IMG/VR virus record: IMGVR_UViG_3300050015_000276
Coordinates: 32,001-96,000 of that record
Source of the DNA: a virus
Reading direction: 5' to 3' (one strand)
DNA length: 64,000 nucleotides
The position numbers and the translations under genes were made by a program. Below are positions 31,854 through 43,258 of the stretch, piece by piece (the stretch's first letter is position 1; every line of letters starts with the position of its first letter). Under the pieces are notes generated by a model that was given only the letters and a program-made list of their open reading frames with translations, ran no database searches and was not told the origin of the DNA.

Positions 31854-32105
31854 GAGGCCCTCCTGATTACTGCGGGTTCTATTGACCGGACCAGAACTGC
31901 GGGTCCATGGATGGGCCGCGCGGGCAGGTGCACCCAGAAGCATAGCAGTACTATTAGAACCTGCACTTTTCACCTCCAAAGACCACTGATATTAGCAGCC
32001 CAATAGCCAACACACCAAGGACGAGGACTTGCGTATTCATTGGTTTCTCCCGACACTATCGTGTTTCGGCTGGGGACCACCCAGCCTCATCGGGGGAGGC
32101 GGCCC

Positions 32106-40021: not shown

Positions 40022-40942
40022 ATGAATTCCTACCTCGGCAATCCGGCATTAAAAGACGCTAACGTAAAGGTGGTTTGGACTCCTAAACGTTTAGAAGAAC
40101 TCCAAAAGTGTCAAGAGGATCCGGTTTACTTCATTACTCATTATATTCAGGTAGTAACATTAGATGAAGGTGTTACTAATTTCAAATTGTGGGATTTTCA
40201 AGCTAAATTAATTAAGAATGTACACGAAAATCGGTATGTTATTACCGTTATGCCGAGACAGTCTGGGAAATCAACAACCATGATTGCCTACTTTCTTCAT
40301 TTTATTTTATTCAACAAGTATAAAAGTGTTGCAATTCTTGCCAATAAACGCGATACTGCGGTTGAATTGTTGTCACGTCTTCAACTTGCTTTCGAATTAT
40401 TACCGATGTGGCTTCAACAAGGTGTTAAAGTTTGGAATAAAACGAGGATTGAACTTGAAAATGGTTGTATTATAACGGCTCATGCTACATCAAGCGCATC
40501 AGTTCGTGGACAGACATACAATATCATTTTCTTAGATGAATTCGCACATATTGATCCTAAATTGGCAGATAAGTTCTGGACTTCGACTTACCCCGTAATT
40601 TCTTCTGGTAAAACGTCAAAGGTTATTATTGTTTCAACGCCCAATGGAATGAATTTATTTTACGAGATGTGGGTGAAAGCAAATTTAGCTCACGATCATA
40701 AAGATTGGAATCAATTCATACCTCTTGAAGTTCATTATACTGAGGTACCCGGGAGAGAAGATCATGCCTGGGCAGATAAAATTATTTCTATAATTGGACA
40801 GGACCGATTCGATCAGGAATTTGGTCCGTGCGTACTAAAAACCCCTATATACTTATATGATACCATTTTACAAAAATGTGTTATAATACCTATAGGACAA
40901 TTATATGAAAGATTATGCGAACCTGAATTACTGGATAAATGA
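40022..40942 (+). CDS. gp17: Terminase large subunit N-fragment (aa 1-268) fused to a 38-aa N-intein
   Basis: MPRQSGKST, IFLDEFAH and VSTPNGMNLFY motifs. Ends QEFG|PCVLKTPI...IGQLYERL. Confidence 0.92.
   Translation: MNSYLGNPALKDANVKVVWTPKRLEELQKCQEDPVYFITHYIQVVTLDEGVTNFKLWDFQAKLIKNVHENRYVITVMPRQSGKSTTMIAYFLHFILFNKYKSVAILANKRDTAVELLSRLQLAFELLPMWLQQGVKVWNKTRIELENGCIITAHATSSASVRGQTYNIIFLDEFAHIDPKLADKFWTSTYPVISSGKTSKVIIVSTPNGMNLFYEMWVKANLAHDHKDWNQFIPLEVHYTEVPGREDHAWADKIISIIGQDRFDQEFGPCVLKTPIYLYDTILQKCVIIPIGQLYERLCEPELLDK
40826..40942 (+). mobile_element. Split intein N-half (IntN, 38 aa)
   Basis: Starts exactly at the QEFx/CEF junction; block-A-like PCVLKT (Thr6) and I..LYE.L. Confidence 0.8.
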
Positions 40943-41991
40943 ACGTGGTTTAAATGAAACTGAAGCCCAACAACGAATAGAACAATATTTACAACGCCAA
41001 CATGATTCTGCAATACTTAATTCCGAAGACTTTTGGATTAACAAAAGAAATTTTAGAAAACGATTATAAAGAACTAAAATCTAAATACCAAGTTAAATTA
41101 AAATATGGAATTTCATTACATGTAATACAGAGATGGTTTAAAGAATTTGGAATAGAAACTACCTATTACAAGAAAATTGATAAAGTAAAAATGAAGGAAC
41201 TTTGTATTTCCGGAGAACCTGTTATTTATGCCGCAGACCAATTAGGTTGTCCAATTCATTATTATACAACAGAACGCAATAGATTAGGTTGGGTTTCAGA
41301 GCCAAAATTATTTGATTTTGAAACAACCAAAAAATTATGTGAAGAAATTGTAGGAATTTATTCGCAAGGAATAGACAAGGCTTTTCTTGCCGATCCAAAT
41401 TTAAGACACAGTGTAGAACATTACACTAAAGACCATTTTTTGGAATCGGATAAATTTACCGAAAGAGTATATCGAATAATACATAATTATAAACCAGATC
41501 AAAAAGATAAATGTAAAGTTACTGATGAACCTTTAAAATTCTATACAATCGTAAAAGGATATGGAGAATCTGAATTAAAAATTTCTAAACGAGGATCATT
41601 ATATTGTAAGTCTGCTGTTTCACAAAAAATGTTCAATGAAATTCACAAAAAACTTCCAAAAAAATTGCAAAAGAAGTGTAAGTTTTCTTCATTGAATAAA
41701 GAAGGACAAGTAAAAATAAATAAAAAAGATCAAAAACTTCCAGGAATGAATAAATTTCATTATCAATTAGATTTTTGTCTTGATAAACATAATATTGAAT
41801 TTGATGGAACTTATTGGCACTCCAACCGAAAAAACCAAGATAGTACAAGAGATAAATACTTACAAGGAAAAGGATATAAAATTCTTAGGATTACAGAATC
41901 CGAATATAATAAATACCCAAAAATTACCGTACAAAAATGTCTACAATTCTTGAAGGACTCCAACAAAATAACGGCCGCTACAAAATCTTAA
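40905..41991 (+). CDS. Vsr/DUF559-like free-standing endonuclease between the intein halves (ATG 40905 plus a +1 shift at 41031-41034, or ATG 41002)
   Basis: Y.LDF......IEFDGTYWHS......RD.YL...GYKILRITE.EY motif and an HTH-like N-terminal part. Confidence 0.8.
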
Positions 41992-42293
41992 CACCAAATG
42001 GATATGAAGATTTTTCTGGTATAAGAAAATTAAAAAAAGATAAAGTTATTCATATCACTTTCATGGATGGTAGTTCAATTTCTTCCGCAGAAAATCATAT
42101 TTTTGTACTTTGGAATACAAAACTCATTTTTGCTGGAACATTAAAAGTTGGAGATGCTTTATACGCCAAAGATAGTATTCAATATATTTCCTCTATTGTT
42201 ATCGAAGAAAAAGAAACTGATTTTTATTGTGTTGTGAATTCTGGAAAAGATCAAGTTTATTTTAATGGAGAAAACAAAGTACTTTCCCACAAT
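41937..42293 (+). mobile_element. Split intein C-half (IntC, 119 aa)
   Basis: YKILTPNG..DF.GI, block B AENH, LKVGD, block F FYCV, block G LSHN followed by Cys+1. Confidence 0.88.
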
Positions 42294-43226
42294 TGTGAGT
42301 TCCTTGGTTCTGGAGCTACATTAATTAATGGAAGATTTTTAAAAGCGATGGTTATTCTACCTCCAAAATATTCACAAAATGGTTTGGATGTATATAAAGA
42401 TCCCGGAAGAACTTTAAATGAACCTCGAATTTATGTTATTGCAGTTGATACCGCAAGAGGTAGACAACTGGATTATTCAGCATTTACTATCATCGACGTG
42501 ACGGAATCTCCTTATGAAGTAGTGGCTAAATATAGAAGTAATACCATTCCACCTGTTTTATTTGCTGATGTAATTGTTCCAATTGCTCAAAAATATAATA
42601 ATGCTTATATTATGATGGAAAATGATGGACCGGGATATCAAGTAGCAGATGATTTACATCACATACATGAATATCCTAATATTTTAATGGTTGCAACAAA
42701 AGGTCGGTCAGGACAAATATTAGCAACTGGATTTGGAAATACAGGTAAGAATGTTCAACGTGGTGTTAAAATGAGTACTCCGGTCCGTCGGACTGGTTGT
42801 ACCAATTTAAAAACACTTATCGAAACAAAACGATTAATTATCTATGATAATGACATAAAAGGTGAATTAGCCTCATTCGAATTGAAAGGTGATAAGTATC
42901 AGGCAGCCGAAAATCATCATGACGATTTGGTAATGACTCTGGTAACTTTTAGTTGGCTGACAACCCAAAAGCATTTTAGAGATATGGTTGAGGCCGCATT
43001 ACGTGAAGATTTACAAGAAGAATATACCCCGCAATTTGACCACGATTTAACCCCTTATGGATGGATTGAAACACACCATGATGTTGAAGAAGTTATACTT
43101 ACCGACAGAGATATTTGGAAAAGTGCTCAAAACGATGTTTGGGAACATTATGCCGAACAAGAACGGATAAAAGCTACCATTGATATGGTGAAATTAAAGC
43201 GATTGCAAGAAGTTGGTTGGGGTTAA
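41937..43226 (+). CDS. gp17: C-intein fused to the terminase large subunit C-terminal nuclease fragment
   Basis: HN|CEFLGS, VDTARG..LDYSAF, YNNAY..MEND and HHDDLVM motifs. Confidence 0.92.
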   Translation: MSTILEGLQQNNGRYKILTPNGYEDFSGIRKLKKDKVIHITFMDGSSISSAENHIFVLWNTKLIFAGTLKVGDALYAKDSIQYISSIVIEEKETDFYCVVNSGKDQVYFNGENKVLSHNCEFLGSGATLINGRFLKAMVILPPKYSQNGLDVYKDPGRTLNEPRIYVIAVDTARGRQLDYSAFTIIDVTESPYEVVAKYRSNTIPPVLFADVIVPIAQKYNNAYIMMENDGPGYQVADDLHHIHEYPNILMVATKGRSGQILATGFGNTGKNVQRGVKMSTPVRRTGCTNLKTLIETKRLIIYDNDIKGELASFELKGDKYQAAENHHDDLVMTLVTFSWLTTQKHFRDMVEAALREDLQEEYTPQFDHDLTPYGWIETHHDVEEVILTDRDIWKSAQNDVWEHYAEQERIKATIDMVKLKRLQEVGWG

Positions 43227-43250: not shown

Positions 43251-43258
43251 TATAAATA
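43251..43258 (+). promoter_or_regulatory. T4-type late promoter TATAAATA
   Basis: Upstream of gp18. Further copies at 46521, 49638, 51970 and 56688, and on the minus strand at 14773 and 17200. Confidence 0.8.

Follow-up and report, generated by a model that had tools for sequence, protein, structure and literature searches.

The atypically split inteins of phage terminase large subunits (TerL) are made up of a short N-terminal intein fragment (IntN) and a long C-terminal one (IntC). AceL-TerL is split 25/104 and GOS-TerL 37/115, and these two, like the Cat inteins, have Cys1 or Ser1 and Asp at block F position 4 (F4) and have been reported as class 1 (reviewed in PMC11766414). Fractured genes were defined, with Vsr-like homing endonucleases, by Dassa et al. 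in 2009, and one gp17 terminase locus was already listed among them (PMC2677866). Here, a terL (gp17) locus is analyzed that lies in a stretch of 64,000 nucleotides of viral DNA (IMG/VR record IMGVR_UViG_3300050015_000276, positions 32,001 to 96,000), which as a whole will be called the window. Its intein has Pro as residue 1 and Cys at F4. Sequence comparison gives about an even chance to the view that this is a functional, mobile, atypically split TerL intein without a position-1 nucleophile, which would trans-splice in a class 3-like manner through Cys-F4 to give QEFG-CEFLGS.

Concerning class 3 inteins, the prototype is the DnaB intein of mycobacteriophage Bethlehem (MP-Be DnaB), in which the F4 Cys attacks the N-terminal amide to form a branched thioester, followed by transfer to residue +1 (PMC2807308). 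It resembles the window intein in Pro1, Cys-F4, His at B10, the terminal Asn and a phage ATPase as host protein (PMC2807308), but it is a cis-splicing intein of 341 aa with a LAGLIDADG domain, the full Trp-Cys-Thr (WCT) triplet and Thr+1, and common descent with the TerL intein family is not detectable beyond the HINT fold. Among class 3 inteins, AceL NrdHF is the sole naturally split one reported (PMC7891396). It shares with the window intein a fractured gene with a free-standing homing-endonuclease gene (HEG), a phage-like metagenome contig, a non-nucleophilic residue 1 and Cys-F4. Its WCT triplet is deviant, with Met at B12, and it is experimentally class 3 (PMC7891396). Unlike the window intein, it has the canonical split site (98/48), with the initiating Cys and residue 1 on different fragments from those in the window, and it has Ala1, Ser+1 and a GIY-YIG HEG and lacks the penultimate His. 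Bvi IcmO has class 3 chemistry with both branched intermediates being thioesters and, like the window intein, Cys+1 (PMC5222942), but this bacterial mini-intein splices in cis and its WCT triplet is complete. No atypically split class 3 intein was found in the literature, the closest cases being AceL NrdHF, with its canonical split, and the artificially split DnaBi1 (PMC10559147). So, an earlier reading of the window made from its letters (the sequence-only reading), which knew of no described case combining these properties, can be kept as regards the atypical split, but not as regards natural splitting of a class 3 intein, which AceL NrdHF already provides.

The fractured terL gene

The terL gene of the window is broken into three: an N-half with an IntN tail, a Vsr-like homing-endonuclease gene, and a C-half with the IntC at its start. 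The features of the two halves are the following:

40022-40942, + strand: N-ORF (open reading frame, 306 aa), reading ...QEFG and then a 38-aa tail, PCVLKT...LLDK and stop
40022..40825, + strand: TerL N-extein (268 aa, the ATPase part), ending ...FDQEFG (Gly-1); Terminase_6N match, E 4e-21; aligns with the TerL of HTVC008M and Melnitz
40826..40942, + strand: IntN (38 aa and stop), with Pro1 at 40826-40828, Cys2 at 40829-40831 and Thr6 at 40841-40843; aligns without gaps with 27 other IntN tails
41937-43226, + strand: C-ORF, 119 intein-like residues ending VLSHN, then CEFLGS
41937..42293, + strand: IntC (119 aa), with block B Ala51-x-x-His54-x-Phe56 (42087-42104) and block G Ser117-His118-Asn119 (42285-42293)
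42228..42230, + strand: Cys98 codon TGT inside FYCV (block F position 4); Cys98 is proposed as the nucleophile at the branch point
42294..43226, + strand: TerL C-extein (310 aa and stop), CEFLGS being opened by Cys+1 (42294-42296); Terminase_6C match, E 1e-12

The sequence-only reading had placed gp17 in two ORFs, and this is borne out by the ORF list and by the Terminase_6N match on the N-ORF and the Terminase_6C match on the C-ORF. The 38-aa tail after QEFG and the 119-residue IntC ending LSHN are as it described them, the codons that it gave for Pro (40826) and for Cys98 in FYCV (42228) are at those positions, and His54, Phe56, Ala51, Ser117 and Asn119 (IntC numbering) are all present.

Judged by insertion site, split architecture and homology, the window element is a member of the AceL/GOS/Cat-TerL group of atypically split inteins. 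For its IntC, homology to CatC, the engineered consensus of TerL inteins (PDB 6DSL), is clear (E 1.2e-15), and the gp41-1 intein is matched more weakly (E 1e-5 to 1e-6). Relatives of the IntC numbered 486 in IMG/VR, of which 80 loci were kept for the comparisons, and 526 (E<=1e-3) among 1.84 billion cluster representatives. The insertion site, ..EF-x before C-E-F-L-G-S, is identical in the 80 IMG/VR loci and is also that of the AceL/GOS/Cat-TerL inteins. Nearly all of these loci have an N-half tail of 28-47 residues, often an endonuclease gene, and a C-half with 105-120 intein residues ending SHN, followed by Cys. The lengths in the window (38/119) fall within the family's ranges, about 25-47 aa for the short IntN and about 105-120 aa for the long IntC, and Cys+1, the penultimate His and the terminal Asn are common to the window intein and the AceL/GOS/Cat-TerL inteins. 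The assignment of the fractured gene to the AceL/GOS family by the sequence-only reading is thus supported by the CatC match, the site and the split lengths. It should be noted that GOS-TerL was compared through its description in the review, the sequence comparison being with the Cat consensus in PDB.

The layout of the locus also agrees with the fractured genes of Dassa et al. (2009): the intein halves are on separate ORFs, and they flank a free-standing Vsr-like HEG, of the type found in fractured genes (PMC2677866), whose ends overlap the halves. With many relatives and this precedent, the fractured architecture of terL is in itself ordinary. What those fractured genes do not include is a described Pro1/Cys-F4 intein (PMC2677866), and in the window the HEG is frameshifted. 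From the AceL/GOS/Cat-TerL inteins, the window intein differs by Pro1, Cys2, Ala at B7 and Cys at F4, so that the Cys1 or Ser1 with Asp-F4 of the class 1 TerL family is replaced in it by Pro1 with Cys-F4.

Unsplit members of the TerL intein family also exist: in L007:3063-6236 and in P0012, a single ORF holds N-extein, mini-intein and C-extein. Three kinds of form thus occur in the family: cis-splicing, split without HEG and split with HEG. Besides, several metagenomic TerL sequences (P0069, P0083 and P0095) have two or three intein pieces of the TerL family per polypeptide or gene fragment.

Proline at intein position 1

The metagenomic TerL P0003 is continuous and free of intein. It reads FDQEFG-CEFLGSGATLINGRFLK, i.e. 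QEFG-CEFLGS, and its identity to the window is about 90% over the N-extein up to Gly and 88% from Cys268 onward. Because this intein-free form reads QEFG-CEFLGS, the segment inserted in the window is exactly Pro...Asn. At the window break point, the uninterrupted TerL of HTVC008M and Melnitz reads EFE-CEFLGS. When 28 IntN tails are aligned with MAFFT, no gap occurs in columns 1-18, which cover 7 extein residues and intein positions 1-11; in the first intein column, 26 tails have Cys or Ser, and the other two, those of the window and locus L006, have Pro. With Pro taken as residue 1, Thr comes to stand at position 6, and the hydrophobic alternation (positions 8 and 10) also keeps to the family register. 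The closest Ser1 relatives (L004, L005 and L086) have an identical N-extein end, QEFG, with Ser directly after it. On the grounds of P0003, the gapless register and these Ser1 relatives, Pro is intein residue 1. The sequence-only reading, which had preferred this Pro to the next Cys as intein start and had pointed to Thr at position 6 in that register, is upheld on both counts.

The Pro1 form is real and has been kept, rather than being an assembly slip, as judged from an independent contig: L006/L087, from another sample and coding for a 78% identical protein, also has Gly-Pro-Cys, written GGA CCT TGC where the window has GGT CCG TGC (CCG being the Pro1 codon, 40826-40828), i.e., with a synonymous Pro codon.

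The Cys next to Pro1 gives rise to a different interpretation, a shifted class 1 mechanism in which Cys2 would attack at the Pro1-Cys2 bond, Pro would be the last residue of the N-extein, and TerL would read QEFGP-CEFLGS. In its favor, Cys at position 2 occurs only in the two Pro1 lineages, the other IntN tails having V, F, I, L or T, and residues 1-5 seem to have been remodelled together by a compensated frameshift (see below), so that a nucleophile could have reappeared one position later. However, the extra residue is absent from the intein-free P0003 and from all uninterrupted relatives, and if counting starts at Cys, the family register is lost both for Thr6 and for the hydrophobic alternation along strand 1. 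Moreover, the side chain of beta-strand residue 2 faces away from the residue-1 pocket, position 2 being a core hydrophobic one in the family, and in the inteins that have been studied, a Pro at -1 is unfavorable to the N-S acyl shift. A start at Cys2 would also leave unexplained the clade-specific Cys-F4 and the loss of the block B Thr. With all this, we consider it decidedly improbable.

Cysteine at block F position 4

In alignments, Cys98 is paired with Asp at F4 in CatC, as expected from the sequence-only reading, and in gp41-1, and with the engineered F4 Cys of gp41-1_WCT (6RIZ). When the distinct paired loci are sorted by the residues at position 1, F4 and +1, the combinations are S/D/C (22 loci), C/D/C (13), S/C/C (2), P/C/C (2) and C/E/C (1). 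Cys at F4 is present in five IntCs, those of the window, L006, L004, L005 and L084, which form one clade (support 100/100, stem 0.96 changes per column) nested among Asp-F4 sequences in the IntC tree, while about 50 other distinct loci have Asp or another non-Cys residue at that position.

Further searches added little. A degenerate DNA scan of IMG/VR for [YF]-C-[IV]-[IV]-N-S-G-K-D found no Cys-F4 beyond L005 and L006. No independent Cys-F4 was found among the 150 best matches of the 1.84 billion cluster representatives, Asp being present in 147 of the 172 sequences examined. Two apparent extra cases, P0069 and P0101, were rejected as misalignments of Y-D-C with Asp at F4. Among about 15 billion proteins, the Cys-F4 clade is a single 50%-identity cluster (P0005). 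A metagenome scan for more members gave four loci, three of them duplicates of L006, L004 and L084 and the fourth a short fragment (L090), and the sole addition from a third protein search was a near-copy of the L004 N-half. Over this range of sequences, the Cys-F4 form is rare, and Cys-F4 is a derived, clade-specific state. The sample of the clade consists of five IntC and five distinct IntN, so covariation within it rests on one or two events; the L084/L085 contigs stop short of the N-half and give no position 1 residue.

Across the Cys-F4 clade, M1, H54, C98, S117, H118, N119 and Cys+1 are invariant. The sequence-only reading had taken Phe56 and Ser117 as replacements, in this intein, of the Trp and Thr of the WCT triplet. 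The residues are indeed there, but they are not changes of this intein: throughout the TerL intein family, otherwise class 1, B12 is F, L or I and the Ser at G5 is invariant. The change of the block B Thr to Ala fared differently, since it is present and specific to the two Pro1 lineages: position B7 is Thr in L004, L005 and L084 and Ala in both Pro1 members. Thr-B7 usually helps to activate the scissile bond at the N terminus, and Ala-B7 together with Pro1 fits an altered chemistry at the N-junction. On the other hand, the pairing of Cys-F4 with a non-nucleophilic residue 1, by which the sequence-only reading had likened the intein to class 3, does not hold as a fixed association, because the nearest relatives L004 and L005 have Cys-F4 with Ser1. 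Cys-F4 is thus, from these sequences, older than Pro1.

Another observation in the clade concerns a further Cys. All four paired members also have Cys at intein position 2 or 3, which is rare elsewhere in the TerL family, and in L015 a Cys3 occurs together with Asp-F4. A disulfide between Cys2/3 and Cys-F4, gating splicing by redox state, is conceivable.

Splicing chemistry

The course of the reaction that would best explain these features is as follows. The 38-aa IntN tail is predicted to dock on the 119-aa IntC, completing the HINT fold. Cys98 (F4), aided by His54 (B10), would then attack the Gly268-Pro1 bond, giving a branched thioester, and the N-extein would be handed over to Cys+1, for which there is a precedent in Bvi IcmO, a class 3 intein that also has Cys+1. 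Finally, cyclisation of Asn119 would leave the exteins joined as QEFG-CEFLGS, the sequence of the intein-free allele.

As to the first step, ESMFold2 placed a 45-residue N tail on the IntC with an ipSAE of 0.76, a mark reached by 58 of 80 solved complexes and by 2 of 110 mismatched pairs, while the best control gave 0.00. The runs agreed in at least 88% of contacts, with a partner pLDDT (predicted local distance difference test) of at least 69. The modelled contacts join intein residues 2 to 14 of IntN to IntC blocks B (48-51) and F (94-99). This score may reflect likeness to the solved 6DSL complex, which is not the same as a proof of binding.

Compared to the class 3 signature, the window intein has no Cys, Ser or Thr nucleophile at position 1 (Pro1) and has Cys at block F (C2) position 4 (Cys98); at +1 it has Cys instead of Ser or Thr. 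The operational definition of class 3 used in the AceL NrdHF study is the absence of Cys at position 1 plus Cys at C2:4, and 4.6% of class 3 inteins deviate at G5 (PMC7891396); so defined, class 3 would take in the whole Cys-F4 clade. Each deviation has a working precedent, Cys+1 in Bvi IcmO and a non-Trp B12 in AceL NrdHF.

Several points weigh against class 3-like splicing in the window. The Trp-B12 of class 3 is replaced by Phe56 and the Thr-G5 by Ser117. When Trp, Cys and Thr, together with C1A, were grafted onto the class 1 intein gp41-1, mostly C-cleavage and no real splicing resulted (PMC7664689), and because that graft failed, signature residues alone do not establish the chemistry. 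Pro1 is always accompanied by Cys2, so comparison cannot separate the two candidate nucleophiles. The covariation of Pro1 with Ala-B7 rests on a single evolutionary event, and for the same reason the association of Pro1 with Cys-F4 (2/2 versus 4/40 pairs) is not a valid statistic. Finally, a class 3 pathway does not follow from Cys-F4 by itself, since Ser1 is kept in L004 and L005. Its codon in the Cys-F4 relatives is TCA (L004) or AGT (L005 and L086), and the use of both suggests that Ser1 is still selected there.

The combination of a non-nucleophilic residue 1 with Cys+1 is also the pairing of the class 2 intein KlbA (PMC2807308). By a similar route, Cys+1 of the window intein might attack the Gly-Pro amide directly, with Cys-F4 merely assisting. 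KlbA, however, activates Cys+1 through Asp-F4 (PMC2807308), and it is this Asp that is replaced by Cys in the window. Furthermore, in Bvi IcmO, with the same Cys-F4 and Cys+1, Cys+1 is unable to replace Cys-F4 (PMC5222942). A class 2-like reaction seems very unlikely on this basis.

Selection, movement and origin of the Pro1 form

Between the two Pro1 lineages, the ratio of nonsynonymous to synonymous divergence (dN/dS) is 0.215 for IntC (dS 0.81), 0.27 for IntN (dS 0.54) and 0.088 for the N-extein (dS about 2.0). By these values, purifying selection has acted on the intein from the time when the Pro1 lineages separated. Its synonymous divergence is lower than that of the N-extein, which suggests that it moved between TerL backgrounds, and this low dS, together with the intein-free P0003 of about 90% identity, points to the element having recently been moved horizontally or lost.

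These data bear on whether the intein splices at all. It could be that IntN and IntC only tether the TerL halves non-covalently, or that the phage lineage is defective. The lack of a nucleophile at position 1, the disappearance of Thr-B7, the incomplete WCT triplet and the frameshift of the adjoining HEG in the window, a sign of element decay, all go in that direction, and a dN/dS of about 0.2 would also be expected under selection for folding and association alone. Yet His54, Cys98, His118, Asn119 and Cys+1 are all retained in both Pro1 lineages, and the occurrence of the Pro1 form in two TerL backgrounds, with a dS of about 2.0 for the exteins versus 0.5-0.8 for the intein, suggests viable spread. 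In addition, no second terL is present in the genome, which is complete, and the split falls inside the ATPase region of an essential motor. We regard a non-splicing intein as unlikely, though with some weight. If the intein were nevertheless inactive, the essential motor would be working as a non-covalent two-piece enzyme.

In the IntC tree, the window and then L006 are successive basal branches of the Cys-F4 clade. Taken literally, this would make Pro1 ancestral, an option that was not adopted: the approximately unbiased (AU) test does not reject a single clade of the window and L006 (p 0.36), and the outgroup state is Ser or Cys. Pro1 is probably derived, with a single origin. The first intein codons hint at how it came about. 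They are TCA TTT TGT ACA AAA ACT in L004 (2653-2670) and CCT TGC GTA CAA AAA ACA in L006 (3416-3433), the window counterpart being 40826-40843. At this place, GTACAAAAA is common to L004 and L006, but shifted by one base relative to the frame. A one-base loss and then a one-base gain in the A run, with three or four substitutions, would explain the change of SFCTK to PCVQK, a more economical path than ten substitutions in six codons. Judged from these two sequences, Pro1 and Cys2 probably arose together.

On the best reading of the sequences, the Pro1/Cys-F4 form arose within a class 1 family, from Cys1/Ser1 with Asp-F4 through Ser1 with Cys-F4 to Pro1 with Cys-F4 and Ala-B7. It may further be that class 3 chemistry had a second, independent origin here, in a class 1 family whose living intermediates are preserved, the window intein then being the first atypically split one of class 3; we would put this a little short of an even chance. 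The origin of class 3 is debated, and after the failure of the WCT graft one group argued against simple divergence from class 1 (PMC7664689). The Cys-F4 clade offers a natural series in one homologous family, with few substitutions and intact relatives for each stage, and it makes the question of class 3 origin directly testable at residues 1, B7 and F4. Should the chemistry be confirmed, a single family would show how class 3 can be reached from class 1 naturally and by steps. In that event the 38-aa IntN would have no catalytic nucleophile, with all reactive groups on the IntC. Split inteins with a short IntN are prized for protein labelling with synthetic peptides. If the proposed chemistry is confirmed, the window intein would provide for protein ligation a short, nucleophile-free IntN, with no need for an N-terminal Cys or Ser. 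The location of both nucleophiles on the recombinant IntC piece was noted as an advantage in the case of the artificially split DnaBi1 (PMC10559147).

The homing-endonuclease gene and the genomic context

Between the two halves of terL, the endonuclease gene is present as two pieces:

40905..41069, + strand: out-of-frame 5' piece of the homing-endonuclease gene (54 codons), overlapping the end of IntN
41002..41991, + strand: main ORF of the free-standing Vsr-like homing endonuclease (329 aa), its end overlapping the start of IntC

The C-terminal part of the main ORF matches Pfam DUF559 (E 2e-7) and MTES_1575 (E 1.5e-7), of Vsr-like nuclease fold, and the gene has one copy in the genome. In L006, L004 and L086, an equivalent ATG inside the end of IntN opens an uninterrupted HEG ORF, 356-357 aa long. 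The window carries a single additional base close to position 41040, within or adjoining a run of T, so that roughly the first 45 codons lie outside the reading frame. The frameshift may represent decay, an internal restart at the ATG at 41002, or an assembly error. In another member of the clade, L005:3047-6296, the endonuclease gene is absent between the intein halves and the gap is about 50 bp. The N-half of L005 (634 aa) has a second, LAGLIDADG-containing insert upstream in the ATPase domain, probably a cis-splicing intein.

At 179,687 bp, the genome of the virus record bears direct terminal repeats (DTR) and is 100% complete by estimate. A single Terminase_6N match was found across this complete genome, so terL is present once, and the split point lies within the ATPase region of the packaging motor, which is essential. 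The locus is part of a T4-like late-gene block. No T4-type late promoter TATAAATA occurs between the terL halves, the nearest being at 43251, before the sheath gene. By DNA, the nearest cultured relatives are Pelagibacter phage HTVC008M, the Methylophilales Melnitz phages and cyanomyoviruses, all of them Kyanoviridae. In other genes of the same phage genome, outside the window, there are two more matches to Pfam Intein_splicing (G000:C1:165290-165871 and 107299-107550), and in the relative L084 the portal gene also has an intein.

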